NCBI GenBank assembly: GCA_949293175.1
Contig: CASFCI010000002.1
Coordinates: forward strand, 27,765-91,764
Origin: an uncultured bacterium
GTDB lineage: Bacteria > Bacillota_I > Bacilli_A > RFN20 > CAG-826
Reading direction: 5' to 3'
Length of the DNA: 64,000 nucleotides
The position numbers were made by a program, and so were the translations under genes. Numbering within the stretch: position 1 is the stretch's first letter; each line of letters starts with the position of its first letter. Positions 15,743 through 59,458 of the stretch are shown piece by piece. The notes beneath the pieces were generated by a model. It was not told the DNA's origin, did not search any database, and was given only the letters and a program-made list of their open reading frames with translations.

Positions 15743-15887
15743 AAGTCTCCTATCTTATATGCGATTTCTATGAAACCGCTTTCACAAAGTATTTTATTTA
15801 TCCGATAAATGGCCGTCAATGGGTAATGAAATCGATTTCTTAGGAATCAATCGGGAAACAATAAAGAGGTTTCTTTCTTCCTAGGAA

Positions 15888-22099: not shown

Positions 22100-22909
22100 C
22101 TACTTGACGTTGCCCGAGCCGATGCCCTGCTCGGATTGCCCTAGCGGAAGGGTATCGATGGCCTTTCCGATCTGCGAGCGCCAGAAATCCCAGTCGTGGC
22201 CGCCGTCCTCCTCGTCCCAAGTCAGCTCGGCATGGTGGGCCAAAAGGAAGTCGCGGAAGGATACGTTGGCCTCATATAGGCCATCCTGCCTCGCGCAGGA
22301 AAGGTAGATGTGCGGATATCTGGAGGCGTCGCCATGCAGCGACTTCTCCATCTTCAGGAAGCAGACGCGCGGGTTCATGTCGCTTTGCTTGGCTTTCTTT
22401 AAGTCGCCGAATAGGCTATGGAACTCGTTGCCGTTGTCCTGCCCCTCGAAGACGTGGACCGCGGAGGAGAAGGCCAGGATATGGGAGAAGGTCTTGTGGT
22501 ACTTCAGGCCAAGCCGCAAGGCGCCGTATCCGCCCATCGAGAGGCCGCCGATGAAGGTGTCCTCCCTTTTCCGCGATAACGGGAAGATCCTCCTGGTCAC
22601 CTCGATGAGCTCCTTGGCGATGAAATCCTCGTAGTCGGCGCCCGGATGCGGGAGGTTTAGATAGAACCCGTTCTCCCCCGAGGGGAGGATCACCGCGAGG
22701 TCCTTGCTCTCGGCTAATAGCCGGAGCGGGGTATTTAGCGCCCAATCGTTGCAATCCCCGAGCAAACCATGCAGGAGATAGAGGGTTTTGAACTCCTTTT
22801 TCTTGCCGAACCGCCCGAAGGTCATCGTCTTGTCCGCGGGGATGATCGCGTTAGCCGTGACGGTCCGCTTGAGGCAGGATGAGAAGTAATTGAAGGTAAT
22901 GAAGGCCAT
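22100..22909 (-). CDS. Putative esterase, alpha/beta-hydrolase fold (tributyrin esterase / S-formylglutathione hydrolase-like)
   Basis: GLSMGG is a GxSxG nucleophile elbow, and LLHGLLGDCNDW is present. The start MAFITF is preceded by AAAGGAG. The upstream part of the track ORF is likely untranslated. Confidence 0.6.
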   Translation of the reverse strand: MAFITFNYFSSCLKRTVTANAIIPADKTMTFGRFGKKKEFKTLYLLHGLLGDCNDWALNTPLRLLAESKDLAVILPSGENGFYLNLPHPGADYEDFIAKELIEVTRRIFPLSRKREDTFIGGLSMGGYGALRLGLKYHKTFSHILAFSSAVHVFEGQDNGNEFHSLFGDLKKAKQSDMNPRVCFLKMEKSLHGDASRYPHIYLSCARQDGLYEANVSFRDFLLAHHAELTWDEEDGGHDWDFWRSQIGKAIDTLPLGQSEQGIGSGNVK

Positions 22910-23005
22910 ATGCGCTCCTTTTGTTTCCATTATTGTAATAGGAAATAATCGGCTTTTATAAGCCTTTGCCCCACTTCGCCCCCTTTTGCTATATAATCCG
23001 GTGGC

Positions 23006-24364: not shown

Positions 24365-25209
24365 CCGAGCTCGAGCAAGCCAGGCGGATCGCCGCAAAGA
24401 TAGGGGACGAGGTGGAGATTAAGCCCCTCTTTGGCGGCACGAGCAACGCCATCTTCGCCTCGGATGGTTTCGTTTACCGGATAAAGCGGCCCCATCAGGT
24501 CGATGAGATCGATTCGCCAGAGCGCGAGATGCTCGCGGTCGACCTCTCGATGGGCTGCCCCTGCCTGCCGGAGGTGGTTTACTTCGATGGGCGCGGGAAC
24601 AAGGCCGAAAGGCGCCTAAAGGGCATCACCGTGAGCCAGAAGGGCGTCGACGAGGCGGATTTCCCCGCGATAATCAAGGCCATCGAGCAATTGCACGCCA
24701 TGCCGGAATCCGAATACTCATTCAACCTCGTGGAGCGCTATCGGCAATACAAAGACCATTCCGGAATAAAGGGATGCATCTCCCCTTTCGAACGCAGCGT
24801 GATGGCCTACGCCTTCCGCCGGATCGAGCAGTTCCCCCGCCGCCTTTCGCACAATGACCTATGGGGCGGGAACATCCTAATCGACGGCGGGCAGGCCAAG
24901 CTCATCGACCTCGAGTTCGCCTCCACCGCCCCCGAGGTTTTCGACTACCTCTCCTTCGTTGAGGAGAACGACCTGCCGCTAGAAAAGGCCAGGCGGTTCT
25001 TTGAGCTCTCCGGACTCCAGATGGACTTCGACGATTTCGCGCTGCTCAGCTACTCGCTCGACATCATCTGGGCCTACTGGGCCCTATGCCGGGAGAAGGA
25101 AACGGGCAAAGGCAAAGACATCGCAAAGGCAAAACTAAGGCGGCTATATAGAGGGCGGGCCATCATAAAGGCCCGGCTCGGCTATTACGTCGACCTCATC
25201 GCCGACTGA
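24361..25209 (+). CDS. Phosphotransferase-family protein (APH / choline kinase-like fold)
   Basis: HNDLWGGNILID is the Brenner HxDxxxxN motif and IDLEFA is the DxE motif. The start overlaps the upstream stop as ATGA. Confidence 0.6.
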   Translation: MTELEQARRIAAKIGDEVEIKPLFGGTSNAIFASDGFVYRIKRPHQVDEIDSPEREMLAVDLSMGCPCLPEVVYFDGRGNKAERRLKGITVSQKGVDEADFPAIIKAIEQLHAMPESEYSFNLVERYRQYKDHSGIKGCISPFERSVMAYAFRRIEQFPRRLSHNDLWGGNILIDGGQAKLIDLEFASTAPEVFDYLSFVEENDLPLEKARRFFELSGLQMDFDDFALLSYSLDIIWAYWALCREKETGKGKDIAKAKLRRLYRGRAIIKARLGYYVDLIAD

Positions 25210-25732
25210 AGGTCTGGTCGTATTGGGATAGGCCATCCGAAATGGCCTGTTTGGCGGAGATGGCCCCCTCGTATCCTAGGACCTCGGTGTCCTTCCCCTC
25301 CTCAAGCTGCTTATACACCTTGAAGAAGTGGTCGATCTCCTTCGCGACGTGCTCTGGCAGATCGGACAAGGAACGGAAGGCGTTGTAGAAGGGGTCGTTG
25401 AAGGGTATGGCGATTATCTTGTAGTCCTTCCGCCCGCCGTCTTTCATGACCAGCATCCCGATTGGGTAGCACTTAACGAGCGCCAGCGGGATTATCGGGC
25501 CGGAGGAGAGTATCAACACGTCGAGAGGGTCCCCATCGTCGGCCCAGGTCTTGGGGATGAAGCCGTAGTTGTGCGGGTAATGGGTCGAGGTGAAGAGGAA
25601 CCGGTCGAGGATTAGGGCCCCCGACTCGTGGTCGATCTCGTATTTGGCCGAGCTTCCGGCGCTTATCTCGACGCAGGCGTAGAAGGCCTCCGGGGTCTGC
25701 GCGTCGCGCTTCACGGAATGTATTAGGTTCAT
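25196..25732 (-). CDS. ppa: Inorganic pyrophosphatase (family I)
   Basis: DGDPLDVLIL, the YPHNYGFIP motif, and a size of about 178 aa. Confidence 0.85.
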   Translation of the reverse strand: MNLIHSVKRDAQTPEAFYACVEISAGSSAKYEIDHESGALILDRFLFTSTHYPHNYGFIPKTWADDGDPLDVLILSSGPIIPLALVKCYPIGMLVMKDGGRKDYKIIAIPFNDPFYNAFRSLSDLPEHVAKEIDHFFKVYKQLEEGKDTEVLGYEGAISAKQAISDGLSQYDQTFSRR

Positions 25733-25940: not shown

Positions 25941-26876
25941 ATGGTTACTTTGCTAGACGTCGCCCGGAAGGCTAAGGTATCGGTTGCCACGGTTTCCCGG
26001 GTCATCAACGGAAAGCCTTTCGTCAAGCAGGAAGTGCGCGAGCGGGTGAACAAGGCCTGCGAAGAGCTGGGGTACATGAAGGACCTCAACGCCGAGCGGC
26101 TTCGGCGCGGCGTTCACTCAGACATCGGCATCATCGCCCCCTACCCGGATTGGCCGATAGCCACTTCAGTCTACAACGGCCTCTACCGCGCCTCGGCCAT
26201 CGCCGGGGCGTCCATCGTATTGACCTCATCCTTCTCCGATCCGGGGAAGGAAAGGGAATGCTTCGCCTCGCTTTTGGCATCTAAGGTAAAGGCGATAATC
26301 TTCTCGCCCTCGACCGCGGAAAACGCCGAGGCGGTCGCCCTTTGCCACCGCAATGGGGTCAAGGCGATACAGGCCATGCGGAAAGCCTACGACGACGTGC
26401 CGGCCGTCTGCTTCGACATCGACGCCGCGATCGACATGGCCTGCTCCTTGCTGAAGCAATCGGGGGTTAGGCGCCCGCTTTTCGTCTACCCATCGCCCAA
26501 GTTCCTCTCATGCGGCAACGCCTGCTCCCGCTTCTACCTGAATATGGGAGAGGAGGGCGCCCTTTGCATCGACGAGTGCAAGGTCAGCAATGAGCCGGAA
26601 TCCATCGGGAAGGCCATTGAGCTCTACTCCCCCGACGGCATAGTGTGCGGCTCCGACGCCTCCTGCGCCGCGGCCTACCATTACCTGATGTCGGCCAATA
26701 GGGAGGTTCCGCTGATCGGCTTTGGCAACGACGAGTGGAAGAAGACGCTCGGGATAACCGCGGTCGACTTCGAGAGCGAGGAATTCGCCCTGGCCCTGCT
26801 TGCGGCGCTGCAAGAGGAGGAGCCGACCGACAAGAAAGTCGCGCCGCTGTTGCACCGGCGGTCATTCGGCTTCTAG
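25941..26876 (+). CDS. LacI-family transcriptional regulator (CcpA-like candidate)
   Basis: N-terminal HTH LLDVARKAKVSVATVSRVING. The periplasmic-binding-protein-like core is 311 aa. Confidence 0.8.
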   Translation: MVTLLDVARKAKVSVATVSRVINGKPFVKQEVRERVNKACEELGYMKDLNAERLRRGVHSDIGIIAPYPDWPIATSVYNGLYRASAIAGASIVLTSSFSDPGKERECFASLLASKVKAIIFSPSTAENAEAVALCHRNGVKAIQAMRKAYDDVPAVCFDIDAAIDMACSLLKQSGVRRPLFVYPSPKFLSCGNACSRFYLNMGEEGALCIDECKVSNEPESIGKAIELYSPDGIVCGSDASCAAAYHYLMSANREVPLIGFGNDEWKKTLGITAVDFESEEFALALLAALQEEEPTDKKVAPLLHRRSFGF

Positions 26877-37080: not shown

Positions 37081-37890
37081 CTATTGGGCTATGGGCGCTT
37101 CGCTATTCCCGCGGGCAAGCTGCCCAGAGGTCCCCATTATGTCCTCGTCCTCGGGCATCTCGGCGCCGATCCAAACGGCGTTGAGCGAGGCGAAGACCAG
37201 GGTCTGGACGAACCCGGAGAATAGGCTGAAGTAAAGGTTTAGGACCCCGATCGCGAACGGGGCGAGGAATATCTGGCCCCAGGGGCCGATGGCGCCGAAG
37301 ATGGCCATCGAGGCCGACTTGAGGGCCCAGTTGACGATGCCGATGATGACCGATCCGGAGATGCAGTTGCCGAACATACGCAGCGACGTGGAAACAATCG
37401 GCGTCCACATGGTCACCAGATTGATCGGCAGCCAGATCTTGAGCGGCTCGATGTAGCGATGGAAGTATCCGAGGTGCTGGTAGCGGAGCGCCGTGACCTG
37501 GATCAGGACGAACATCACCAAGGAAAGGGTGAAGGGAACGAGCAGGTAGTCGATGATCGAGGGCAACCCGAGCAGCGACCAGTTGAACGAGATGAATAGG
37601 TATACCCAAAGCCCGGCGAAGTAGCCCGGCCAGTTGCCGACGTTGCGGTGCCCCATCATCTCCGAGGTCCAATTGTCGAGGGAGGAGACGCCCATCTCGG
37701 CGAGCAGCAATATCCCCCGCGGCGCGACCTTGGGGTCGGCGCGCCTTGCCTTGATGCCGATCACTATGGCCAAGATGGCGATGATGGCCATCACCATCGC
37801 CGACGATATCACAGCGCCGGAGACGTCTAAGTCCCACCAGCGGTCGATCATCTGCGAGATCGGCGAGGAGGAATCAAGCAGCATGTTCAT
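37081..37890 (-). CDS. atpB: Fo ATP synthase a subunit
   Basis: Polytopic. It contains the conserved Arg-containing helix (...LALRLF-like region LRYQHLGYF / NLVTMW). Confidence 0.8.
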   Translation of the reverse strand: MNMLLDSSSPISQMIDRWWDLDVSGAVISSAMVMAIIAILAIVIGIKARRADPKVAPRGILLLAEMGVSSLDNWTSEMMGHRNVGNWPGYFAGLWVYLFISFNWSLLGLPSIIDYLLVPFTLSLVMFVLIQVTALRYQHLGYFHRYIEPLKIWLPINLVTMWTPIVSTSLRMFGNCISGSVIIGIVNWALKSASMAIFGAIGPWGQIFLAPFAIGVLNLYFSLFSGFVQTLVFASLNAVWIGAEMPEDEDIMGTSGQLARGNSEAPIAQ

Positions 37891-38326
37891 CGTCTTCGCC
37901 TTCTTTCCTAGATGGCTTTATCTTCCTGAAAAGCCCAATGGCGGATGAGGCCAAAGGCAGCGGGAGGTATCCCCCGATGACGCCCCAGACGTTGAGGTAA
38001 GGCCATTCGTATATGTAGGTAAGCAAAGCCGCCACGACGACCGCGGCGACCAGCAATAGGAAGCGCAATACGACGAAGACGACGGATAAGACCATCTTCC
38101 CCGCCTTCTGCTCCCCGGGCTTAAGCAAGGCCGAGGACGTAACCACTATCGACCAGTAGGTGAAGATGGCGACGGCGATGCCCAATAGCCATCCAAGCGG
38201 GACGCCGGGGTTGCCCAGGAAGAAGAAGCAGGAAAGCGCGAGAAAACCCACGATCCCGATTCCGGCAATGCAGAGCCCGGTCATCCAGTACTCGCTCTTC
38301 CTTATCTTCTGCAGCGCCTTTCCCAT
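37874..38326 (-). CDS. atpI: AtpI-like small membrane protein
   Basis: 150 aa with 4 TM helices, located immediately upstream of atpB. Confidence 0.45.
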   Translation of the reverse strand: MGKALQKIRKSEYWMTGLCIAGIGIVGFLALSCFFFLGNPGVPLGWLLGIAVAIFTYWSIVVTSSALLKPGEQKAGKMVLSVVFVVLRFLLLVAAVVVAALLTYIYEWPYLNVWGVIGGYLPLPLASSAIGLFRKIKPSRKEGEDDEHAA

Positions 38327-38335
38327 AACGGGGAT

Positions 38336-38365
38336 ATGTTAGGCACAGCGTGAGCAAAAAAGCAA
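38336..38365 (-). promoter_or_regulatory. Candidate atp-operon promoter: -35 TTGCTT, an 18-nt spacer, then -10 TAACAT
   Basis: Read on the minus strand between the pfk stop and atpI. Tentative. Confidence 0.3.
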
Positions 38366-38393
38366 ACAAAACGGGAGGCTTACCTTATAGGTA

Positions 38394-39593
38394 CTAGTCG
38401 CGTAGAAGCCTAAGCGATGCGACTTTGTAGATGCCCTCTTCGTAGGCGACGTCGACCTCGCCCTGGATCAGGGGGCGGAGGTAATCGCGGAAGCATTGAC
38501 TGAGCCCGTGGACGTTATGCAGGAACTCGGGCGGGATCTTCTTCTCGACGTTGGCGATGCCCTCGACCGATTTGAGCTCATATTCGACCTGGTACGGCTG
38601 ACTGCTGATCCTCCTGATGGCCACCATCTTGCCCGACTCCCCCGCGACTGCCGCCTTGCAGGCCACCCGGGCGCACTCCACGGCCTCATCGCGGTCGACC
38701 TTGGAGACCAGTATCGGGAAGGCGCGCTGCGGGAGGGAGAGCTCGATCGAGCGGGTCGGGAGCCCGAGGTTCTGCTCCACCCGGCGGGAAAGCGCGTCGG
38801 CCGCACCGCCGAGCTGGATGTGGCCGAAGGCGTCGACCCGGGCCGAGGAGGTGTCGCGGGGGAAGACGATGCCCTCGCTTATGGCGACCACGCAGTGCCC
38901 CTTGGCGTCGTGGACCTTCTTGACCTCCTTGTAGAACTCATCGAGGTCGAAGGCGTCCTCCGGCAGGTATATGAGGTCGGGGCGGTAAGGCGCGGGGAGG
39001 AGGTCGACCGAGGCGGTCAGCCAGCCGGCGTTGCGCCCCATCACCTCGACGACGAACACCTTGCCCTTCTTGTAGCAGGAGGCGTCGACGCAGACCGACT
39101 TGACGGTGTTTATGACGTATTTGGCGGCCGAACCGTAGCCGATGCAGTGGTCGGTCGCGGAGAGGTCGTTGTCGACCGTCTTGGGGACCCCGATGACCTT
39201 GACGTCCATGCCCTTGGAGGCGAATAGGCGCGAGAGCTTGGAGCAGGTGTCCATCGAGTCGTTGCCCCCGTTGACGAGGATGTAGCCTATGTCGTGCTTC
39301 CTAACGGTCTTGATTATCGATTGGTAGCGCTCGTCCTCGAGATCGGAGGGCAGTTTGTAGCGGGTAGAGCCCAGGGCCGCCCCCGGGGTCTGCAGCAGCA
39401 ATTCGATCTGCTCGGGGTCCTCCTTGCTTAGATCGGCGAGGTCGTCGTAAAGCAGTCCCTCGATGCCGTGCAGGCTCCCGAGGACCTTGCTTACCTCCTT
39501 ATGCTCCCCCGCTTCCTTTATCGCCCCGTATAGGGACGAGTTGATGACCGCGGTCGGTCCGCCCGACTGCAGGTACGCCAATGCTTTAGCCAT
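38394..39593 (-). CDS. pfk: 6-phosphofructokinase, long form, with a PPi-type active-site signature
   Basis: PFK fold (GGPTAVIN...GGNDS...PKTVDNDL). Asp at the Gly104-equivalent and Lys at the Gly124-equivalent positions are the residues reported to specify PPi use. The start MAKALAY is preceded by AAGGAG. Confidence 0.8.
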   Translation of the reverse strand: MAKALAYLQSGGPTAVINSSLYGAIKEAGEHKEVSKVLGSLHGIEGLLYDDLADLSKEDPEQIELLLQTPGAALGSTRYKLPSDLEDERYQSIIKTVRKHDIGYILVNGGNDSMDTCSKLSRLFASKGMDVKVIGVPKTVDNDLSATDHCIGYGSAAKYVINTVKSVCVDASCYKKGKVFVVEVMGRNAGWLTASVDLLPAPYRPDLIYLPEDAFDLDEFYKEVKKVHDAKGHCVVAISEGIVFPRDTSSARVDAFGHIQLGGAADALSRRVEQNLGLPTRSIELSLPQRAFPILVSKVDRDEAVECARVACKAAVAGESGKMVAIRRISSQPYQVEYELKSVEGIANVEKKIPPEFLHNVHGLSQCFRDYLRPLIQGEVDVAYEEGIYKVASLRLLRD

Positions 39594-39654
39594 GTCTGAC
39601 TCCTTATCTAGTAAAGCAGTATACACTAGAAGCAAGTCCGATGAACGCTAGATT

Positions 39655-39668
39655 TGTAAGCGGTTACA
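39655..39668. promoter_or_regulatory. cre (CcpA-binding catabolite responsive element) TGTAAGCGGTTACA
   Basis: Perfect match to the consensus TGWAANCGNTNWCA. It sits within a duplicated block of about 25 nt, AACGCT.G.TTTGTAAGCGGTTACA. Confidence 0.5.
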
Positions 39669-39791
39669 CAATCGGCTGGCAAATCAAAGAGAAAACCTCG
39701 CGCGCCATACTTAATTGGGCTCCATGTAGGGTAGAATAATGGCGTACCCGAATATCGGCCACTATGGCCGGTTCCGGGGAGGAGGTAGAAA

Positions 39792-39995
39792 ATGGAACAT
39801 TTCTTCATGCCGGTAATGAAAATGCAGGAAAGGCATCAGCAGGCGATCGGGCAGCCGGTGCCCGACGACGTCATGAAAGCCGCCAAGAAGGACCCGGAGA
39901 ACTGGTACGTCGAATGGTATAAAGGCCGGGAACCCCACTATTTCATCAACCTCAACGCGATCGACTACGTCCACGCCCTCATAATAGAAGACTAG
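39792..39995 (+). CDS. Small hypothetical protein (67 aa)
   Basis: The ATG is preceded by GGGAGGAGG. It lies between two cre copies. Confidence 0.4.
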   Translation: MEHFFMPVMKMQERHQQAIGQPVPDDVMKAAKKDPENWYVEWYKGREPHYFINLNAIDYVHALIIED

Positions 39996-40033
39996 TCTCC
40001 GTCTCAGCCGAGAAGTTCGATAAACGCTTGCTT

Positions 40034-40047
40034 TGTAAGCGGTTACA
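40034..40047. promoter_or_regulatory. cre TGTAAGCGGTTACA, second copy, 37 nt upstream of the udk-like ATG
   Basis: Identical 14-mer and flanks to the 39655 copy. Confidence 0.5.
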
Positions 40048-40083
40048 TATTAAGATAGTCGGCCAGGGGTCATAGGAGGTCCT

Positions 40084-41733
40084 ATGCCATTTTCCGTCAC
40101 CATCGGCAACAACACGACAACGTATCAGAAGAAGATGAGCCTGCTTGAGATACTAAACGGCTCCAACGAAGACAAATCGATCATCGCCGCCCGGGTCAAC
40201 AACCGGGTCAGGGAATTGACCTATGAGGTCAACTACGACTGCGAGATACAGTGGCTCACCGTCAAGGACGGCGACGCCACCAAGACCTACGAGGCGTCGC
40301 TGCGCTTCATCACCGCGATGGCCTTCCGCCGCGCCTACCCCGATCTGAAGATAAGGTTCGCCTACAACGTCTCCCGCTGCGTCTCGATCCACCTGCTCAC
40401 CCCGGGCTACACCGCCAACACGGCGATGCTGCTCAAGGTCAGCCACGAGATGGAGCGCATCATCGCCTCCGACTACCCCCTCAAGCGGATGGTCGTCCCC
40501 ATTGAGAAGGCCCGCGAGGTATATGAGCAGCTCGGCTACGAGGACAAGCTCGCCCTTTTGCCCTACCGCCCGGAGAAGACCGCCCACCTCTATGAGTGCG
40601 ACGGCTTCTACGACTACATGTACTCCCACATGGTCCCCTCGACCGGCTACATCAAGAAGTACAAGCTCCGCCTCTACGCGCCGAGCTTCCTATTGCAGTA
40701 CCCGCGCGCCGAGGCTGGCGGCGAGATCCCGCCCTTCCAGGACGCCCCGACCTTCGGCAGGGTCCTCAAGGAATCCCACGACTGGGCCAAGATCGTCGGC
40801 TCCGACACGGTCGCCGGCATCAACAAGTCCATCGAGCGCCGCGGGCCAATCGAGTTCATCAACCTCTGCGAGGCGCGCCACAACCGGATGCTTTGCGAGC
40901 TCGGACAGATGATCGAGGACTCCATCGACGAGGTGAGCCTGATCTGCATCGCCGGGCCCTCAAGCTCAGGCAAGACCACCTTCGCCAACCGCCTCCGCAT
41001 CGAATTGCTCGCCCGCGGAATCAACCCGATCCGCATCTCGATCGACGACTATTACCTCGAGAAGGACAAGATCCCGAAGGGGGAGAACGGGGAGATCGAC
41101 CTCGAGTCCATCGAGGCGCTCAACATCCCGCTTTTCAACCAGAACATGGTCGACCTCATCGCCGGGGAGACCGTCACATTGCCGAAGTTCGACTTCCAGT
41201 CCGGCAAGTCGGTCCCGGGCAGGACGCTCCACGTCGAGCGCGGCCAGCCCATCATCATCGAGGGCATCCACGCTCTCAACGACCGGATGACCGTCGACAT
41301 CCCGAAGTCGGCCAAGTTCAAGATCTTCATCGCCCCCCAGGCCCAGATCAACCTCGACGACCACACCCCGCTCTCGCTCACCGACCTGCGCCTCATCCGC
41401 CGGATCGTGCGCGACTACAAGTTCCGCAACGCCTCGGCCGAGGAGACCATCGGCATGTGGCCTAGCGTCCGGGCGGGCGAGTTCAAGTGGATCTACGACA
41501 CCCAGGAGGGCTCCGACTACGTCTACAACTCGATGCTCAGCTACGAGCTCCCGGTCATGAAGAAATACGCCTTGCCGCTGCTTAAGGGGATCGAGGAGAC
41601 ATCTCCATGCTTCCCCACCGCCATGCGGCTGGTGAGGATGCTCAAGTTCTTCGTCGACATGGACGACCAATGGGTACCATCGAACTCGCTGATGAGGGAA
41701 TTCATCGGCGGCTCGTGCTACGAGGACGTGTGA
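40084..41733 (+). CDS. Uridine/cytidine kinase-like P-loop kinase fused to an N-terminal TGS (ThrRS/GTPase/SpoT-like) domain
   Basis: GPSSSGKTTFANRL P-loop, the IIIEGIHAL motif and a beta-grasp-like N-terminus. Preceded by GGAGG. Confidence 0.6.
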   Translation: MPFSVTIGNNTTTYQKKMSLLEILNGSNEDKSIIAARVNNRVRELTYEVNYDCEIQWLTVKDGDATKTYEASLRFITAMAFRRAYPDLKIRFAYNVSRCVSIHLLTPGYTANTAMLLKVSHEMERIIASDYPLKRMVVPIEKAREVYEQLGYEDKLALLPYRPEKTAHLYECDGFYDYMYSHMVPSTGYIKKYKLRLYAPSFLLQYPRAEAGGEIPPFQDAPTFGRVLKESHDWAKIVGSDTVAGINKSIERRGPIEFINLCEARHNRMLCELGQMIEDSIDEVSLICIAGPSSSGKTTFANRLRIELLARGINPIRISIDDYYLEKDKIPKGENGEIDLESIEALNIPLFNQNMVDLIAGETVTLPKFDFQSGKSVPGRTLHVERGQPIIIEGIHALNDRMTVDIPKSAKFKIFIAPQAQINLDDHTPLSLTDLRLIRRIVRDYKFRNASAEETIGMWPSVRAGEFKWIYDTQEGSDYVYNSMLSYELPVMKKYALPLLKGIEETSPCFPTAMRLVRMLKFFVDMDDQWVPSNSLMREFIGGSCYEDV

Positions 41734-41841: not shown

Positions 41842-41872
41842 AAAAAAGGCCTTCCCCGAAGGGAGGCCTTTT
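41842..41872 (-). terminator. Rho-independent terminator after the lipoprotein operon
   Basis: On the minus strand, the hairpin GGCCTCCC-TTCG-GGGAAGGCC is followed by TTTTTT. Confidence 0.5.
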
Positions 41873-41880
41873 GGCTTAGT

Positions 41881-43332
41881 TTACTCGGCGGCGTAGCTCG
41901 GCAAAGTCGTCGAGTTAATGTCGGAGAGGGTGAAGCGGAGGTAGTAATCGACACCTTGGATCGAGAAGGAGGCCAATACGGTCTCGATCGCGGTCTTATC
42001 CTCGTTGAGGGTGACGACCAGGCGGTCGGTCGAGCCCTCTAGGGCGCCCGACTGCACGCCGAGCATCCCGTTATCGAAGTAGGAGCCGAGTCCGCTGACG
42101 ACCAACTCCTCGGCTTCGTAGGTCCTATCGCCGGTCTTCTTGAACAAGGCCGGGTTGATGGAGGAGAAGTCGGGGCCGAGGCCCTCGAAGGAATCGATGG
42201 TGTAGACCGCGGAGCTCGACAGGGTCACGACGTGCCAATCCCATCCGAGGTCGCCGTAGTCGTACTGATAGACGTGGTAGAGCTTGTCGGAGGGGTCATA
42301 GACCGCCTTGTAATCGTAGTCGTCGCCACCCTGGTAGGGATGTTCGTCCCCGGGGGCGGAGCGCTGGGCGTAATAGGCCATGTCGTCGCGGATGAAGTAG
42401 CCGGTGGTCCAGGTGGTGCGCTCGCCATCCCAAGAGGAGAGGAACTCCTTGTTGTAGGTGTAGGAGTCGACGCCGTCGAGGCACTTGAGGGCCGCGGCTA
42501 GGTCGGGGTTGTCGTTGGCGTAGGGCTGCAGATGGGGGACCGGCTGCTCGCCTAGGCTCCGGTCGTAGGTGACGGTGAACTCATTCGTCCTGGTGAAGCG
42601 GCCCTCCTCGCGGAGCTCCGAGATCTCGAAGGCCAATGAGTCGATCCCGCCGTCCTCGCCGAGGTTGAGGGCGATGTCGTCGACGTAGTTGATCGAGGTC
42701 CCGCCATAGCAGGTGACCACGAACTGCGCCTTGGCGCCCTGCAGGTGCAGGCTGCCGTCTTCTTCCTCGATGATGTCGCTGGCCCTGATGTAGTCCCAGG
42801 GGTTGCGGAATAGCGAGTCGAAGGCATACGGGAGGTAGACCCCGGTGGTGTCGTTGTAGTCGGAGAGGTAGGAGCTATTGACCTCGTTGTCGATGGTGAT
42901 CGACTCCTTGATCGCGAGCCCGGTCTCCTCGTCGCGGAAGTAATAGGCCTTCGGGTCGGAGTAGCCCCACTCGGTCGATTCGACCTTGTCGGTGAGCTTG
43001 TAGTCGTAGGCATTGTAGCTGTACTTCTCGGTGTAGGCCCGCACCGCGCCGTATTGGTGGACGATGTCGTAGGTCTTTCCCTGATGGATGCCGACCTCAA
43101 GCGGGTCGTCGCGGTAGACGTCGGTGGCCATCTCGATGTGGGCCCCGTGGGTCTGATGCTGGAGCGAGGCGAGGGCCTTCTGGGCCTTCTGGGTGCCAAC
43201 CGGCAGCTCCGGGAGGGTCACTTCGCCGCCGTCCTCGGAGGAAGATCCCGGCGTCGAGGAGGAACCATTACCCCCGCAGGCGACGAGGGAGAGGGCCATC
43301 AAAGGGGCCAATATGAGCAATTTAGCGTTCAT
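41881..43332 (-). CDS. Lipoprotein, hypothetical. Paralogous to 43345..44604.
   Basis: Lipobox LVACGG. The shared block DNPDLAAALKCL matches DNPELKSALQGL. Confidence 0.5.
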   Translation of the reverse strand: MNAKLLILAPLMALSLVACGGNGSSSTPGSSSEDGGEVTLPELPVGTQKAQKALASLQHQTHGAHIEMATDVYRDDPLEVGIHQGKTYDIVHQYGAVRAYTEKYSYNAYDYKLTDKVESTEWGYSDPKAYYFRDEETGLAIKESITIDNEVNSSYLSDYNDTTGVYLPYAFDSLFRNPWDYIRASDIIEEEDGSLHLQGAKAQFVVTCYGGTSINYVDDIALNLGEDGGIDSLAFEISELREEGRFTRTNEFTVTYDRSLGEQPVPHLQPYANDNPDLAAALKCLDGVDSYTYNKEFLSSWDGERTTWTTGYFIRDDMAYYAQRSAPGDEHPYQGGDDYDYKAVYDPSDKLYHVYQYDYGDLGWDWHVVTLSSSAVYTIDSFEGLGPDFSSINPALFKKTGDRTYEAEELVVSGLGSYFDNGMLGVQSGALEGSTDRLVVTLNEDKTAIETVLASFSIQGVDYYLRFTLSDINSTTLPSYAAE

Positions 43333-43344
43333 TTTCTTTCCTCC

Positions 43345-44604
43345 TTATTCAGCGAAGCTGGTATCGAGCCAGCTCGGCATCGCGGTCGAGCCGACCTCGG
43401 AGAAGCTCGCGGTGATCGAATACGGGCCGTACTGGAAGTCGTAGTAGCCGAGGCTCACCTCGGACATGGTCTCGCCATCTAGGCTCACGTAGGCATAGAA
43501 GGGCTCGATCGCAGAGACCGAGAAGGCGGATGGCACGAGGTCGCGGCTTAATAGCGGCACGGCGTCGGGCAGGAAGGCGTAGACGCCCTCGGACTGCTTC
43601 TGCAGCACCTCCGGCGCGATCTTGGAGTAGTTCGGCAGGTAGTTGGCGATCTGGTAGTTGATGCCTATGGTCGACCAAGAGGAGGTCGAGGCGGAGTAGC
43701 GGTAGCCGGTCGCCCTGCCGCCGGCGCCCTGGACGTAGTAGGTATCGCCGTCCACCGGGTAGGGGAGGCTCGGGTCGCCGTGGATGTAGAGGCTATCGCC
43801 GGAATAGTAATAGGTGTAGCCGAGGCGGATGTCGTTCTCCGCGATGGTCACGGTGTAGTTGGTGCCAAGCCCCTGCAAGGCGGACTTCAGCTCGGGGTTG
43901 TCCTGCGTGCCGACCGAGATGCGGCCGAAGCTCTCCTTGAGGATCTCGAAGGAGAGGTCGACGGTCAGGGTGGACTCGCCGATGAACATGCCCGAGGTGC
44001 TCTCGATGGCGTCGGGGCGGATTGGGCAGGTGAACTCCAGGGTGACCTTGGAATCGACCGGGTTCTCCAGGTCGTAGCCGGAGAAGGTGGCCGAGGTGAC
44101 CGGGAAGTCGAGCCCGAAGTAGGCGTTGAGCATCAGCTCGGCCTTCTGGCTCGAGAGGGCGGATCCCTGTATGTCGGAGGGGCTGATGTAGTCGAAGGGG
44201 TCGTAATAGGTCGAGGCGTAGACCAGGTCCATGCCGAAGGTCTTGTCGACGACCGACTCGAGCTGGTTCTGGTAGTTGAGGGTGTCGTGGTAGGAATACC
44301 CGTCGCTCCCCTCGTAGTGGATGGTGTCGGAGGCCAGCCCATGGTCGCGGATGGCCTCGCGGTCCTCGCCGTCGAAGCTCACCGTGCCGTAGTCGCGGTC
44401 GACGGAGTAGGTGGCGACGCTATTAAGCGACTCCAGACCCTCGCCGTAGTCGGTGGTGAGGACGGCGCTGCCCTTCACGTTATAAGGCAGCTGGAACAGC
44501 CGCAGGTACTCCGGCCCTTCCTCGGCGGAGGAGGGGAGGGCGGCGGAGGTCGCGGCTAGGGGCAATAGAAGCGGCAGCCCCAATGCCAGATATGTCTTTC
44601 TCAT
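43345..44604 (-). CDS. Secreted protein, hypothetical, of the same family
   Basis: SPase I-type signal peptide MRKTYLALGLPLLLPLAATSAA. Confidence 0.5.
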   Translation of the reverse strand: MRKTYLALGLPLLLPLAATSAALPSSAEEGPEYLRLFQLPYNVKGSAVLTTDYGEGLESLNSVATYSVDRDYGTVSFDGEDREAIRDHGLASDTIHYEGSDGYSYHDTLNYQNQLESVVDKTFGMDLVYASTYYDPFDYISPSDIQGSALSSQKAELMLNAYFGLDFPVTSATFSGYDLENPVDSKVTLEFTCPIRPDAIESTSGMFIGESTLTVDLSFEILKESFGRISVGTQDNPELKSALQGLGTNYTVTIAENDIRLGYTYYYSGDSLYIHGDPSLPYPVDGDTYYVQGAGGRATGYRYSASTSSWSTIGINYQIANYLPNYSKIAPEVLQKQSEGVYAFLPDAVPLLSRDLVPSAFSVSAIEPFYAYVSLDGETMSEVSLGYYDFQYGPYSITASFSEVGSTAMPSWLDTSFAE

Positions 44605-46100
44605 CCTTGGTAGCTCCCTAGATATAGATCGAAGGTGTCGAGGACGCCATCGAGGTTGTGGGCGGTGAGGTCGGTGGTCCCGAAGTCGGAGTAGGACACG
44701 GTGCTCACGCAGTCGCCGCCGAAGGCCTCGGAGGCGAAGTATAGCTTGAAGACCGGGTATCCCGCCTCATCGATGCTGACCTCAAGCCGGTCGAAGCCGA
44801 AGGCAAGGGTGGCCGTCGATTCGACGTACCAGCTGCTCATGCGGGTCGGGTAGTCGCCGACGCCGAAGACGGCGGCCATGATGTCGAAGCAGAAGTAGTG
44901 GTCGATGTACGGGAAATCGGCCAGATCGAACACGTAGCCCTCATCGGCCTTCTCGAAGAAGGCGGTCGAAAGCGACTGGATGAAGGGGACGGCTCCGTTG
45001 TCGACGGTGTAGGCGTCGGCCGATAGCGTCGCGGCGTAGCCAGTCCCGCCGTTGGTGCCCGGGGTCACGCCGATCTGGTAGTATCCGTCGGCCCCCGCCG
45101 CTTCCGCGGTGAAGTAGGCCAGTCCGGTGTAGGTCGTGCCATAGGAGGCATCGGTCAAGGGCAGGTCGGTGATCATGAGCTTGCGCCCGCCGAACTTGCC
45201 GGCCAGGTCGTAGTATGACTTGTACTCGCCGCGGTTATCGATCTCGGTCCCATCGACCAAGGTCGTCTTGACGTTGGTGGTGAAGTTCAGCCCCTGGACG
45301 CCATCGCGGAGCTTCTCGAAGGAAGCGGTGAGCGTGGAGAGGTCCTCCTCGCCAAGCGAGGGGGTATACGGGGTGAGCGGGGTCACCGCGTCGATGGCGG
45401 AGAGCTCGACGAGGTAGTCCTCGGCCATGTAGCCGTAGGCGTCGGCGAGGACGTTGGCGAACTTCGCCTGCTTCGGGGTGCCGTTGGCGTCAACGGTCAG
45501 TTCGAAGCCCTCGATCAGCTGACGCGAGGTGAGGTAGTCGAAGCTGTACGGGTTAATGGTATATAGGAATTTCGACATCCCCGGGGAGATGAGGGCGGTC
45601 AATAGCTCGGTCCCCTTCAGGGTGTAGCCATCCTCGGCGGTCTCCACGGTGAAGTAGCGCGAGAAGTTGGAGGCGGTTATGCCGGCGAGGGCCTTGTAGC
45701 CGGAATCGTAGTTGCCGGCGAAGGCGACCGGGAGGTTGGAGTCGTCGGTGACCTCGGTCGACTTGACGACGTTGTCGAGCCCAAGGGCGTTGAGCATGAC
45801 GTAGCCCTCGGGGGAGGAGGTGACGTCGGACTGCAATAGCGGCATCTTGGTGCCGGTGAGGCAGAGGTCGCTGTGCCTGGCGGTGGAGCTGACCTCATCG
45901 GTGGCGGTGAAGGTCGCGCCCCCGAAGGCGGCGTAGCGCGGGGTGATGGTCGCCACCGACTTGATCGGGGCGGCGAAGAAGGAGGCGATGCTGCTTATCT
46001 GCGCATCGGTCAGCCCCACTTCCTCGGCTGTCGCGCCGGTGGCGGAGCAGCCGCAAAGGGCGAGCCCGCAAAGGGCAATGGCGGAATTTATCTTCTTCAT
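44601..46100 (-). CDS. Lipoprotein, hypothetical
   Basis: Lipobox LALCGCS. ATGA overlap with the downstream gene. Confidence 0.5.
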   Translation of the reverse strand: MKKINSAIALCGLALCGCSATGATAEEVGLTDAQISSIASFFAAPIKSVATITPRYAAFGGATFTATDEVSSTARHSDLCLTGTKMPLLQSDVTSSPEGYVMLNALGLDNVVKSTEVTDDSNLPVAFAGNYDSGYKALAGITASNFSRYFTVETAEDGYTLKGTELLTALISPGMSKFLYTINPYSFDYLTSRQLIEGFELTVDANGTPKQAKFANVLADAYGYMAEDYLVELSAIDAVTPLTPYTPSLGEEDLSTLTASFEKLRDGVQGLNFTTNVKTTLVDGTEIDNRGEYKSYYDLAGKFGGRKLMITDLPLTDASYGTTYTGLAYFTAEAAGADGYYQIGVTPGTNGGTGYAATLSADAYTVDNGAVPFIQSLSTAFFEKADEGYVFDLADFPYIDHYFCFDIMAAVFGVGDYPTRMSSWYVESTATLAFGFDRLEVSIDEAGYPVFKLYFASEAFGGDCVSTVSYSDFGTTDLTAHNLDGVLDTFDLYLGSYQG

Positions 46101-47575
46101 CAGTTGGCCCTCCTTACGGTGATGGTGGCGCCTTCGCTATTGAGCGCGCCGACCTCGAAGGTCAGCCCGAGCTCAGGGCGGACGGCCCCATTGCCGTCGA
46201 AGTGGAAGTCGTGGTAGAAGCCATCGACCAGCGATTCCTCACCGAAGACGTCGCCCTCATGCCAGAGGTTGTCGTCGGTGATGTACATCGAGTTGGTCAT
46301 CTGGCGGTTGGCGCCGGTGCTGTCGAGCAGCTGGACGAGCGCGTAGTTGCCGGCGATGCCGTAGACCGCGTTGGTGTTGCGGCCGGAGTTGGTGTAGGCG
46401 AAGTCGTAGGCCAGGTCGGAGTTGAAATCCGGCTCGCCATAATATGGGTAGAACCCGTCTTCTCCGCCGGCGACTAGGCGGGAATCAACCTTGTAGACCC
46501 TGATGGCCGGCTCGGTCAAAGAGGAGCCGGAGTTAAGCCCGGTCGGGGTGAAGTAATCGATGAGCAGGTACTCGCCGAAGACGCCGGTGTCCTCGTTGGA
46601 GAGCAATAGGCTCTCGCCCGGGGCGAGGGTGTAGGTCGCCTCGGTTTCAAGCGAGGAGGCGATGATCTTGGTCGGCTCGGTCCATCCGAGCAGGTACTTG
46701 GTGAACGGGTTGTGGTCGGAGATGCCCTCCTCGGTGACGTCGGTGTAGCCAAGCGGGGCGCGGAGGTTGCCCTGCAGGTCGCCGGTCTGGTCGGAGTATT
46801 CCGGCACGCCGAGCAGGTCGGCGATGGCCTTGATGAAGCGGACGTTCATCGGGTCCTGGGTGCCGAAGCTGGCCCCGAGCGACCCGCACATCCACTCGGC
46901 GGCGTTGGCCTTCTCGGTCGAGACGAGCTGATCGTACATGAAGGAGGCGACCAGCTGGTCCATGGTCTCGTCGCCATAGGTCCAGGTGCCGTTATAGGCC
47001 GGGAAGGGGTTGGCGACGATGAGGTTGTCGATCTTCCCGTCGCCGTCGGAATCGTAGTCGGCGATGGAGTTCCCTTCCTCTACCCAGGCGTCGATCGCCT
47101 CATCCAATGTGGAGGCGATGACCGGGGAGGAGCCGGTGCTGTATAGGTTGTTGAGGAAGTCCTCGAAGCTGGTCGAGAGGGTGACCGGGGCCTCAACCGA
47201 GCCGGAGAGGTTGAGCTTGCCGCCGCTAGATTGCTGATAGTAGCTCAGGGCGGTGTAGCCAACGGGGCTCGACTCGAAGCCGGAGTCGAGGGCCAGTATG
47301 TCCGAGGCGGTAATCTTGAAGACGTCATCGCTGAAGCTGAAGGGGATGACCAATACCTTCTGGTCGCCCTCGCTTTCCATTGCCCCATTGCCCTGCGATT
47401 GGCGCAGCAGCGAAGCCGGCGATCCCTGCTTCTCTTCCTGGCTGGTGCCGGAGGAGTCGCTTCCCTCGCCATCCCCCAGGGACGAGGTCCCTGCGGGCTC
47501 GCAAGCGGCCAATAGGAGGGCGGATAGGGCCAGCGGGAAGATGGCCCGCGTTAACCTTTCCTTTTTCTTTGACAT
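46100..47575 (-). CDS. Lipoprotein, hypothetical. Its N-terminus is reminiscent of M6/InhA-like proteases but has no HExxH.
   Basis: Lipobox LLAACE, plus KVLVIPFSFSDD and a DYDSDGDGKIDN calcium-loop-like motif. Confidence 0.45.
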   Translation of the reverse strand: MSKKKERLTRAIFPLALSALLLAACEPAGTSSLGDGEGSDSSGTSQEEKQGSPASLLRQSQGNGAMESEGDQKVLVIPFSFSDDVFKITASDILALDSGFESSPVGYTALSYYQQSSGGKLNLSGSVEAPVTLSTSFEDFLNNLYSTGSSPVIASTLDEAIDAWVEEGNSIADYDSDGDGKIDNLIVANPFPAYNGTWTYGDETMDQLVASFMYDQLVSTEKANAAEWMCGSLGASFGTQDPMNVRFIKAIADLLGVPEYSDQTGDLQGNLRAPLGYTDVTEEGISDHNPFTKYLLGWTEPTKIIASSLETEATYTLAPGESLLLSNEDTGVFGEYLLIDYFTPTGLNSGSSLTEPAIRVYKVDSRLVAGGEDGFYPYYGEPDFNSDLAYDFAYTNSGRNTNAVYGIAGNYALVQLLDSTGANRQMTNSMYITDDNLWHEGDVFGEESLVDGFYHDFHFDGNGAVRPELGLTFEVGALNSEGATITVRRAN

Positions 47576-47652
47576 GTGTTTCTCCTGTTAGCTTTCTTCA
47601 AAAAAGCATAATAAAGATATAACAAAGCGAAAAAATGTGTATCCCCAAATTT

Positions 47653-47666
47653 TGTAAGCGCTTACA
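47653..47666. promoter_or_regulatory. cre-like perfect palindrome TGTAAGCGCTTACA in a divergent promoter region
   Basis: Matches TGWAANCGNTNWCA. It is flanked by A7 and T7 homopolymer runs. A -35-like TTGCAC lies 11 nt downstream. Confidence 0.45.
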
Positions 47667-47712
47667 CAAAAAAATCTTGCACTTTTTTTAAATTAATCTT
47701 TAATAGTCCTGC

Positions 47713-49350
47713 TTGAAAGGAACTAGCAAAATAATGAAAAACAAAGGAAAAATCCTGCTGGTAGCGGTCCTAGGCGGCGCCCTTATGTCGGGCTGCGGTG
47801 GGAACGTGTCCAGCAGCGAGTCCACCGACGGCGGAGGAACCGCTTCATCGACTGAATCTTCCACCGCCACATCGACCTCGGAAACCTCTTCCGAGGATTT
47901 GGCCGAGGAGCTTTCGGACTCGACCAAGCTAAAGGAGCGGCTGCTGCTTTCCGCCGACCGTATCGTCACCTCGCGCCGGCTCTCGATCGACCTCTCAGGG
48001 ACCATCTACGACGATGGGAAGACCGAGTCGGTCTCCTTGGCCACCGAGCATGAGGGCCTCCGCACCTACACCGAGACCCCAACCGGCGGGACAGCGCGCA
48101 CCTACGTCAGCTACGCCGGCATCCTCGGAAGCGACTACTACAGCGTCGATTCGGACACATACGGCTATTCTATTCGGTATAAAGTCGCCGAAGGCGGGAC
48201 CTACGATCAGGAAGGCGCCGACGGCACCATCGAGCTCGTGCACCAGGAGACCGGTTTGAAAGGCACCCTGGCCTACGACGAAGCCCTGCTCGGGATGAGG
48301 TTCCTCCAAGGAGGGGACGTCGAGGCGACAGACCCCTGCCTGCACGAGGTGGAGTACACCGTCACCGCCACCGATGGCGGCTACGAGGCGGTCTGGGAGT
48401 CCTACTACGAGAACACCGAGACCAGCTCCGAGTACTACTACAACGCCAACTTCCTCATCATCGCCTCCTTCGATGAAGAGCTCAACCTCCTGTCGCTGCA
48501 GTCCGACGTCACCGCCGCCTTCCCCAACGAGTGGGACGCCTCGATCCACGCGCCGCTACCCACCGCCACCCCGATACACCGCCTATATGAGCTAAGCGAC
48601 ATCGTCTACGCCGAATCCTACCCGGCGACCGATCCCGCCCACCCGATACTAGCCAACCTGAATGACTACTTCGTCAGCGAGGTCACCTCGGCCTCGCTGG
48701 TCAGCTGGAACGCCTCCGGCCCCGGCGGAGCCTTCCAGGTCGGCGACACCATCCAGCTCGACGACTCGAGCATCGAATACGCCCCCTCGACCGCGCTAAA
48801 CGCCAGCTATCTAACCATCACCGGTGCCTCTGAGGATGGGGTCCTGGTCGAAACCGAGAAGATGGGCATGACCGCCACCGTCTTCGGCAAGGCCGGCACC
48901 TTCGACCTATACATCGGCGACGAGGTCAGCCCGAGGCTCGGCACCATCACCGTCACCGTCTCCGAGGTCGACACCTCCGGCGGCTCCAACGTCTCCTCGA
49001 TCGATTGGACCGGATTCGAGAGTTCCGAGGATGCCACCTCGACCGAGACCAACCCGGTTTACAACGTCACCGTCCCCTTCAACTTCAACTGGAACCAGGC
49101 TTGGGTGCGCGTCGACGACGGGACCCAGGCGATGCTAGACAAGATAATCCCGTCCTTCACCGACTCCAACGTGATGATGGTCAACTTCACGGAGGATCCT
49201 TCCATGGCCTCGGCCGGATATGCCATCATGGAGTTCTACCCGCTCATGAACAACACCACCACTACCATGACCATCACCAACCCCGATCCCAGCCAGGCCT
49301 GGGGCGTCGAGACCATCACGGTCAACTTCACCGTCGTCCCCAACGCCTAA
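47713..49350 (+). CDS. Lipoprotein, hypothetical, Thr/Ser-rich
   Basis: MKNKGKILLVAVLGGALMSGCGG lipobox. Preceded by an AT-rich promoter region. Confidence 0.5.
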   Translation: MKGTSKIMKNKGKILLVAVLGGALMSGCGGNVSSSESTDGGGTASSTESSTATSTSETSSEDLAEELSDSTKLKERLLLSADRIVTSRRLSIDLSGTIYDDGKTESVSLATEHEGLRTYTETPTGGTARTYVSYAGILGSDYYSVDSDTYGYSIRYKVAEGGTYDQEGADGTIELVHQETGLKGTLAYDEALLGMRFLQGGDVEATDPCLHEVEYTVTATDGGYEAVWESYYENTETSSEYYYNANFLIIASFDEELNLLSLQSDVTAAFPNEWDASIHAPLPTATPIHRLYELSDIVYAESYPATDPAHPILANLNDYFVSEVTSASLVSWNASGPGGAFQVGDTIQLDDSSIEYAPSTALNASYLTITGASEDGVLVETEKMGMTATVFGKAGTFDLYIGDEVSPRLGTITVTVSEVDTSGGSNVSSIDWTGFESSEDATSTETNPVYNVTVPFNFNWNQAWVRVDDGTQAMLDKIIPSFTDSNVMMVNFTEDPSMASAGYAIMEFYPLMNNTTTTMTITNPDPSQAWGVETITVNFTVVPNA

Positions 49351-59398: not shown

Positions 59399-59410
59399 GC
59401 TTAGATAGTA

Positions 59411-59441
59411 AACGAAAAAAGGGATGGTGGCTAGCCATCCC
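59411..59441 (-). terminator. Rho-independent terminator between the permease gene and glpK
   Basis: On the minus strand, the hairpin GGGATGG-CTAGCCA-CCATCCC is followed by TTTTTTCGTTT. Its T-tract ends about 13 nt before the glpK ATG. Confidence 0.5.
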
Positions 59442-59458
59442 AATAGATAGTGGACAGT

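Follow-up and report, generated by a model that had tools for sequence, protein, structure and literature searches.

The closest described system to the one reported here is the CcpA-cre network of Bacillota, in which a 14-nt pseudo-palindrome with a central CG, the catabolite-responsive element or cre (TGWAANCGNTNWCA or WTGNNARCGNWWWCAW in Bacillus subtilis), occurs at several unlinked operons of carbohydrate and central metabolism. The central CG is nearly invariant in the B. subtilis sites, and the position of a site is related to its effect: cre boxes that overlap the transcription start are associated with repression, and boxes at about -50, as in ackA, pta and ilvB, with activation (PMC3463425). 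CcpA also activates the pfk-containing las operon of Lactococcus, according to Luesink 1998 as cited in PMC4155825. More generally, operators of LacI-family regulators are even palindromes with a central CG pair, located 30-140 bp upstream of start codons, and global regulators of this family other than CcpA, namely the lineage-specific GluR, GapR and PckR known from comparative genomics, are proteobacterial and form clear orthologous groups (Ravcheev et al. 2014, PMC4052901). We have analysed a 64-kb stretch of DNA (positions 27,765 to 91,764 of contig CASFCI010000002.1, hereafter the window) from an uncultured gut bacterium of the Bacillota, which is a strain variant of contigs from ENA and the Logan metagenomes, and compared it with uncultured Bacilli genomes. 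The window contains cre-type sites in several promoter regions, and one of these sites occurs twice between the divergent genes udk and pfk, on either side of a 344-bp insert with a 67-amino-acid open reading frame (ORF).

The original prediction had identified three boxes in the window, at 39655, 40034 and 47653, as fitting the cre consensus exactly. A scan with TGWAANCGNTNWCA (PMC3463425) recovered all three: cre1 at 39655-39668 and cre2 at 40034-40047, which consist of the same 14 nt, TGTAAGCGGTTACA, and a perfect palindrome, TGTAAGCGCTTACA, at 47653-47666. The scan also identified two sites that had been overlooked, an exact match at 15771-15784 (TGAAACCGCTTTCA) and a site with one mismatch at 15827-15840 (TGAAATCGATTTCT). 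Four exact sites compare with an expectation of 0.01 per shuffle, as estimated from 100 dinucleotide-preserving shuffles, none of which equalled the observed count. With a stricter pattern, TGTAAGNNCTTACA, and up to three mismatches, five places were found in the 64 kb, four of which were the exact sites. All four exact sites are intergenic, in a window where DNA outside ORFs amounts to about 4%, and all have the conserved G2, C7 and G8 and hence the central CG.

The sites are located in several unlinked promoter or 5' regions, belonging to the genes for a GH81 glucanase and a pyrophosphate (PPi)-dependent phosphofructokinase (PFK), to udk and to a lipoprotein/protease operon. Their distances to the start codons are 37-62 nt for cre2 and cre1, 29 nt for the site at 15771 and 68-78 nt for the site at 47653; in this respect, as in their even palindrome and central CG, they have the general form of LacI-family operators. 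They also follow the CcpA-cre position rules, overlapping the predicted promoter or start at udk and GH81 and lying upstream of the -35 at pfk (PMC3463425). Since the sites are far above chance expectation, intergenic and conserved in related genomes, we consider them to be genuine cre-type operators of the LacI family in promoter regions, that is, putative binding sites for a regulator whose operator would be TGTAAGCGSTTACA. No site with one mismatch or less was found in the 10 kb past the left end of the window in strain L097 (rpmB, glgCDA, leuS, coaX). Searches against Rfam revealed no riboswitch, leader or small RNA in the whole window at the gathering threshold, nor in 39550-40150 at E values up to 5, where two sub-threshold chance matches were the only hits.

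The cre1 and cre2 sites are flanked on one side by pfk (38394..39593, minus strand; NF010675, 1e-133; the same call as in ENA), for which the true start is the ATG at 39593 with the Shine-Dalgarno (SD) sequence AAGGAG. On the other side is udk (40084..41733, plus strand), which encodes a 549-amino-acid protein that matches PF00485 and NF004018 in its C-terminal uridine kinase domain; its product had been named a TGS-uridine kinase, and the N-terminal half matched no family in our analysis. The atp operon comes after pfk. No terminator or promoter-like site was detected between the two (37800-38500 scanned for terminators), and pfk is probably co-transcribed with the atp operon, so that the latter is probably also controlled from cre1.

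The two genes are divergent neighbours in 17 related loci, 10 of which contain the palindrome TGTAAG-SS-CTTACA or a close variant of it upstream of udk. The palindrome directly follows TTGAnn (TTGCTT in the window) and is followed by 3 nt and TAnnAT in eight of these (the window, L003-L008 and L025), while the other two (L009 and L010) have a degenerate palindrome without the TTGAnn -35 element. Together, the palindrome and the 3 nt take up exactly the 17 nt between the -35 and -10 of the predicted udk promoter, which in the window extends from TTGCTT (40028-40033) to the -10 element TAAGAT (40051-40056). An operator inside the promoter spacer is in the classic position for repression by occlusion. 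The amino acid identity of PFK to that of the operator-sharing relatives falls to 47-78%; the nearest genomes to the window are one metagenome-assembled genome (MAG) and Candidatus Alloenteromonas pullistercoris (78%).

A second conserved element, TGTATACT, is located on the pfk side and includes the predicted pfk -10 TATACT (39618..39623, minus strand; GTATAC(A/T) in L005, L006, L007 and the window). The udk-pfk spacers of L005 and L007, with total lengths of 143 and 136 nt, respectively, each contain one operator for both genes, located 32 nt from this element; in the window, the -10 is 31 nt from cre1. From this spacing to the conserved -10, we place the operator some 50 nt upstream of the predicted start of pfk transcription, and the centre of cre1 is accordingly at about -50 of the predicted start. 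The arrangement resembles the las operon (pfk-pyk-ldh) of L. lactis and ackA and pta of B. subtilis, where the promoter of a glycolytic or overflow-metabolism gene has an operator upstream of its -35. Unlike in the las operon, the PFK in the window is PPi-dependent and its gene appears to head the atp operon, and activation is suggested solely by geometry. We predict that cre1 serves pfk on the minus strand and cre2 serves udk.

A repeat search combined with blastn showed that the two operators are part of a longer direct repeat. The pfk-proximal copy (39634..39668) ends with the 14 nt of cre1 and the udk-proximal copy (40013..40047) contains the predicted udk -35 element and cre2. The copies are 35 nt long, identical at 31 positions and separated by 379 nt from start to start, with all 14 operator positions identical; thus, the duplication noted in the original prediction is confirmed, but its length is 35 rather than 25 nt. 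Two of the four differences affect the udk -35, which reads TAGATT in the pfk-side copy versus TTGCTT in the udk-side copy, as if the former had lost a -35 element for which that copy has no further use. The 344 bp between the copies (39669..40012, plus strand) evolve fast, as shown by the strain comparison below. The second operator, the insert and the small ORF were absent from all related genomes compared at the udk-pfk locus, with plain udk-pfk spacers in L005, L006, L007, L009 and L025. Removal of one repeat and the intervening DNA from the window leaves a 111-nt region that is colinear with L005 and L007. Because this deletion restores the ancestral layout and both operators are at their ancestral spacings, we interpret the 35-nt repeat as a duplicated target and the 344 bp as an insertion. 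The paired boxes would then represent one ancestral operator that was duplicated by the insertion, which corrects the earlier view of two boxes placed around a gene.

To quantify the variability of the region, we aligned five strain variants, the window, L001, L087, L088 and L089. The block on the pfk side (39581-39672) contained no variable columns (0/92) and neither did the block on the udk side (40013-40095; 0/83), whereas 52 of the 360 columns were variable in the insert (39673-40012), including an 18-nt indel. The difference between the insert and the two blocks (52/360 versus 0/175) is highly significant (Fisher p = 3.6e-10), and the variation begins 5 nt past cre1 and ends 1 nt ahead of the second repeat. 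These counts indicate that both operator copies are constrained and that the insert is not. In the two closest genera, the same control region contains an isochorismatase-family gene between the operator and pfk, in the same orientation as pfk (L003:9393-10001 and L004:9355-9984). The udk-pfk control region has therefore undergone remodelling on more than one independent occasion.

The ORF of 67 amino acids (39792..39995, plus strand) is present in the insert as had been described, with the SD sequence GGGAGGAGG at 39777-39785 and a coding-like composition (GC content at codon positions 1/2/3 of 0.57/0.24/0.78). It is frameshifted in two of the five strains (L088 and L089), each time by a 1-nt deletion, and its 14 substitutions are distributed as 3/9/2 over codon positions 1/2/3. 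In the comparison with L001, the numbers of nonsynonymous and synonymous changes were 6 and 0 for the ORF, 0 and 4 for pfk and 3 and 33 for udk. On account of the frameshifts and the excess of nonsynonymous changes, the ORF is decaying, with no purifying selection in this species.

There were no matches to the ORF in Pfam, NCBIfam, PHROGs, PADLOC, the INPHARED phage genomes, IMG/VR or the JGI metagenomes, and a word-indexed search of 5.8 billion proteins identified same-species copies only. An exhaustive HMMER and profile search yielded four more distant homologues (P0040, P0042, P0043 and P0044) of 67-71 amino acids and 41-64% identity. Three of the four are located directly after a gene for a P-loop kinase with a Zeta_toxin domain, with overlapping stop and start codons, and two of these three are directly followed by a large terminase gene, which places them in a phage packaging module. 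The ORF is thus of phage origin, and the small gene bracketed by the boxes belongs to a decaying insert and is not a regulated target of interest. An attempt to identify the 123 nt upstream of the ORF as the remnant of a zeta-like gene was not supported by tblastn or by global and local alignments compared with shuffled sequences.

The original prediction had proposed the boxes as control sites for udk and the lipoprotein genes. This is consistent with the conservation in relatives and the predicted operators, but two targets, pfk and the GH81 glucanase gene, had been missed. The predicted GH81 promoter (TTGACG-17-TAAAAT, 15819..15791, minus strand) is the sole strict promoter match of its region. 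The exact site at 15771-15784 covers about +1 to +14 relative to this promoter, and the one-mismatch site at 15827-15840 is located just upstream of the -35 element. Since the former overlaps the predicted start, it fits repression of the CcpA type (PMC3463425), and the GH81 gene is a likely further target of the same regulon.

The site at 47653 is located between two divergent units, an operon of four genes (47575..41881, minus strand) for lipoproteins, the first of which encodes an M6-metalloprotease-like domain, and a gene for a 538-amino-acid protein (47734..49350) that was not assigned to any known role. The orthologous site is kept in L003 (TGTAAGCGCTTTCA) and L004 (TGAAAGCGCTTTCA), in spacers that are otherwise diverged. 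Strict sigma-70 and terminator scans gave no match in 47500-47800. The palindrome has a point change in the close strain L001 (L001:1923-1936, TGTAAGCGCTTCCA). The lipoprotein genes of the operon are the most divergent between the window and L001, with 6.8% nucleotide difference and 37 nonsynonymous versus 46 synonymous codon changes in p499. For four promoters predicted by hand (the distal GH81 site at 15827-15840, pfk and both divergent promoters at 47653), an operator-like site is centred near -50, a recurring geometry that hints at activation or cooperative binding if the predicted starts are right. A strong bidirectional terminator-like hairpin with a 12-bp stem was observed at 41844-41872, between udk and the last lipoprotein gene, which are convergent.

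We hold with moderate confidence that the sites are operators of a global CcpA-like LacI-family regulator and that insertion of a phage fragment duplicated the operator shared by udk and pfk. The data show the sites with their conservation, the insertion and a decaying ORF. Ancestrally, a single operator would have been located in a control region of about 110-140 nt common to the two divergent genes, filling the spacer of the udk promoter in a repression geometry and lying, relative to the pfk start, about 50 nt upstream, in the geometry of CcpA activation. A fragment of about 344 bp of phage origin that carried the 67-amino-acid ORF would then have entered the region, with the operator among the 35 bp of target that it duplicated. 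This would have left pfk, probably together with the atp operon, with cre1 at the old distance and udk with cre2 inside its promoter. Selection would have maintained both copies of the operator while the insert and the ORF decay. The regulon would also have operators at the GH81 glucanase promoter and in the spacer that separates the lipoprotein/protease operon from the gene divergent to it. The candidate regulator, also suggested in the original prediction, is a LacI-family protein encoded at 25941..26876 (plus strand; PF00356, 2e-18; PF00532, 6e-9).

Several observations weigh against this explanation. For the insertion, no strain of the window species with an empty site was found, and about 123 nt of the insert upstream of the ORF have no detectable similarity to phage sequence, so that a phage origin of the whole insert is argued from the ORF. 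For the promoters, a strict sigma-70 and terminator scan of 39500-40200 found neither a promoter nor a terminator, the udk and pfk promoters were assigned by hand, and the udk promoter hexamers in the window match the consensus at only 7 of 12 positions. As the strict scans were empty, we infer the promoter positions at udk, pfk and 47653 from the conservation across genomes; the sign of regulation, repression of udk and activation of pfk, is predicted from the operator geometry. The central CG of the udk operator is kept in the window, L005, L009, L010 and L025 but is replaced by GG or CC in L003, L004, L006, L007 and L008, the GG-centred variant being TGTAAGGGCTTACA; the central CpG expected of orthologous CcpA cre sites is thus not conserved at udk. 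For the regulator, the protein encoded at 25941 scores far below the equivalog cutoff for CcpA (TIGR01481, 66.1 versus 442.35 bits). Outside the species no orthologue of it was detected, with relatives of at least 89% identity being followed by one of 37% in an unrelated contig, while sister genera share the operator. There is also no operator upstream of its gene.

The best of the alternatives for the regulator is a tentative one, in which the 25941 protein is itself the cognate factor, a fast-evolving CcpA derivative that would be independent of HPr-Ser-P and sense a small molecule. The protein has a LacI-type helix-turn-helix and a periplasmic-binding-protein-like core, and aligns to CcpA structures over residues 2-306. 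The top six matches in PDB are all to CcpA (2.4e-18), with 3.4e-10 for the best non-CcpA match, and its recognition helix, VSVATVSRVING, is close to that of CcpA, VSMATVSRVVNG. The gene is intact, and strains in which the protein as a whole is 89-96% identical show hardly any variation in residues 1-58. It is divergent from a gene for inorganic pyrophosphatase (25196-25732, minus strand), and one of the operator targets encodes a PPi-dependent PFK; the 208-nt spacer between the two genes contains no operator-like site. It is common for global regulators of the LacI family not to regulate their own genes (PMC4052901). Against this identification, the protein has diverged strongly in the effector domain and in the hinge helix (AERL, where CcpA has ARGL), and the best relative outside the species, at 37% identity, is from an acetogen-like contig, although the operator is conserved across genera. 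That relative (P0009) was rejected as an orthologue; its gene adjoins a GH32 gene in a contig with genes for carbon monoxide dehydrogenase/acetyl-CoA synthase, suggestive of a local regulator in an unrelated organism. A LacI-family gene located beside pfk in the Mycoplasmatota MAG L032 was also dismissed, as its spacer has no cre-like site.

Thus, the DNA-reading head of the 25941 protein is CcpA-like, and orthology to CcpA is not borne out. The MalI model gave 75.9 bits, slightly more than the CcpA model. In the HMMER alignment with 3oqo (AMRLLTKLM versus ALALLAALQ; posterior moderate to high), the residues aligned to R303 and K307 of CcpA are both Ala. In B. subtilis/B. megaterium numbering, R303 and K307 are said, after Schumacher et al. 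2004, to contact the phosphate of HPr-Ser46-P. Given the TIGR01481 score, the two Ala residues and the lack of relatives above 37% identity outside the species, the protein is not a CcpA orthologue, and we regard it as no more than a candidate regulator. Since the sister genera share the operator with PFKs that are 47-78% identical, they should also have the cognate factor. Hence, the 25941 protein evolves very fast outside the DNA-binding head, or else the gene for the true regulator is located elsewhere. Like GluR, GapR and PckR, the candidate would be a non-CcpA member of the LacI family that controls central carbon metabolism through a family-typical palindrome, with neither linkage to its targets nor autoregulation; unlike these, it has no detectable orthologues outside one species.

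If the regulator is encoded elsewhere, it could be CcpA itself, acting with HPr-Ser46-P in classical catabolite control and binding when a preferred sugar is present, with the 25941 protein as an unrelated paralogue. This we consider rather unlikely. The sites fit the cre consensus exactly, the host belongs to the Bacillota, a glycolytic gene and one for a polysaccharide hydrolase are among the targets, and the operator is conserved across genera, which the 25941 protein is not. On the other hand, about 74 kb from this species, far short of a whole genome, revealed no gene for CcpA, HPr or HPrK. The sole gene in the window that resembles the phosphotransferase system (PTS) encodes a PTS_EIIC_2-type permease, next to genes for an FGGY sugar kinase and aminopeptidase P (57923-60568, minus strand); no other PTS component was seen, and the permease-kinase pair suggests sugar uptake followed by phosphorylation by the kinase rather than a complete PTS. 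Moreover, the loss of the central CG at the udk site in five relatives makes poor sites for a canonical CcpA (PMC3463425). No account of udk as a target of CcpA was found in a literature search.

An improbable alternative to decay is that the 67-amino-acid ORF encodes a functional small protein under the control of the cre boxes. Besides the strong SD sequence and coding-like composition, the ORF is intact in most recorded sequences (a cluster of 51 members, P0001), and the length of the family is kept at 67-71 amino acids in other contexts. This is difficult to reconcile with the frameshifts and the 6 nonsynonymous versus 0 synonymous changes described above, and 12 of the 14 substitutions are at codon positions 1 and 2, with third positions avoided. 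Neither did the strict scan find a convincing promoter between cre1 and the ORF.

We find it very improbable that a local nucleoside-responsive repressor of the CytR/UriR type acts on udk alone, the remaining matches being incidental. No other site is as widely conserved as that of udk, LacI-family regulators of nucleoside metabolism exist (PMC4052901), and the UriR model scores the 25941 protein about equally to the CcpA model. However, equally good sites are found in three other promoter regions of unrelated functions, one of them conserved across genera, where about 0.01 sites would be expected by chance. Finally, it is hardly credible that a mobile element introduced the cre boxes as part of its own ends, the 35-nt repeats, for although direct repeats flank a foreign segment here and around a homologous ORF in another species, the repeat in the window is homologous to the single-copy udk promoter and operator of relatives, each copy is joined to ancestral flank at ancestral spacing, and the repeat in the other species is a different sequence, made up of the 3' end of an S4-domain gene and the 5' end of tilS.

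The insertion in the other species involves the fourth homologue, P0040, which is of chromosomal location and occurs in four independent assemblies (L090-L093). A 346-nt piece is located between the S4-domain gene and tilS (L091:492-991, and likewise in L090, L092 and L093). It is flanked by a perfect 77-nt target duplication in L091 and L092; the sequences of L090 and L093 end at a contig edge. As judged by eye, the piece is a close match to the phage contig L095, with which it is colinear and has sharp ends, and it consists of the last 122 nt of a zeta-toxin-like kinase gene, the ORF homologue and the first ~18 nt of a large terminase gene. The layout of the two inserts is alike, with 123 nt, the ORF and 17 nt in the window and 122 nt, the ORF and 20 nt in the other species. 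In L091, an in-frame fusion of the first 5 codons of tilS with the final 41 of the phage kinase gene gives a 46-amino-acid ORF with a stop codon that overlaps the ATG of the 67-amino-acid ORF homologue.

As for a transposable element, the insert in the window is associated with a target duplication (35 nt, 31/35). It contains no transposase gene, the insert ends in the window bear no relation to those in L091, with no shared terminal repeats, and a weak 7-nt inverted match is the only one near the ends of the window insert. The elements IS1634 and IS1549 generate long target duplications of variable size (8-514 bp; PMC2266710) and resemble the two insertions in having unusually long direct duplications of site-dependent length (35 and 77 nt). 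They differ from these in that the insertions have no transposase and no shared terminal sequence, and in that the L091 insert is a plain piece of phage DNA with arbitrary ends inside two genes. IS1634 and IS1549 are the only known parallel that we found for duplications of 35-77 nt, and nothing else about the insertions is insertion-sequence-like. It is conceivable, although we think it unlikely, that short pieces (~345 bp) of the packaging module enter chromosomes just upstream of genes by an unrecognised route that duplicates the target, including the expression signals of the downstream gene. Such a route could be a defined mini-element or a specific repair or insertion pathway. The recurrent insertion of phage fragments with long target duplications is the only part of these results that might be new, and more examples are needed before it is called a mechanism.

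The sites themselves are of a well-known kind and their role in regulation will not surprise a specialist. They provide a first sketch of global carbon regulation in an uncultured lineage of gut Bacilli, with one conserved operator, found at four promoter regions or more, and a candidate regulator resembling CcpA at the DNA-reading head, not at the HPr-binding face; its identity, and that of its signal, we infer with reserve. The udk-pfk locus would also be a natural example of how the shared operator of a bidirectional promoter is duplicated by an insertion, with both copies under selection and the inserted gene decaying.

A few other features of the window differ in composition or among strains. 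A 933-amino-acid ORF (1688-4489, minus strand; 926 amino acids in L097) has a GC content of 40.6% and a third-position GC content of 0.38, among genes with values of about 0.85. It had no match in Pfam or PADLOC, PADLOC being empty also for the other unannotated genes, and it is probably a recently acquired foreign gene. A gene for another protein of 538 amino acids (10937-12553, plus strand), with no family match, is strain-variable, as L097 lacks it at the corresponding position, between the GH81 gene and a gene for a 186-amino-acid protein. Strains L084 and L085 have genes for a MutH-like nuclease and a DNA methylase between the esterase and NFACT genes (L084:4215-7004). This pair is absent from the window (near 22100-23000) and from L086, and is likely to be a strain-variable restriction-modification module.

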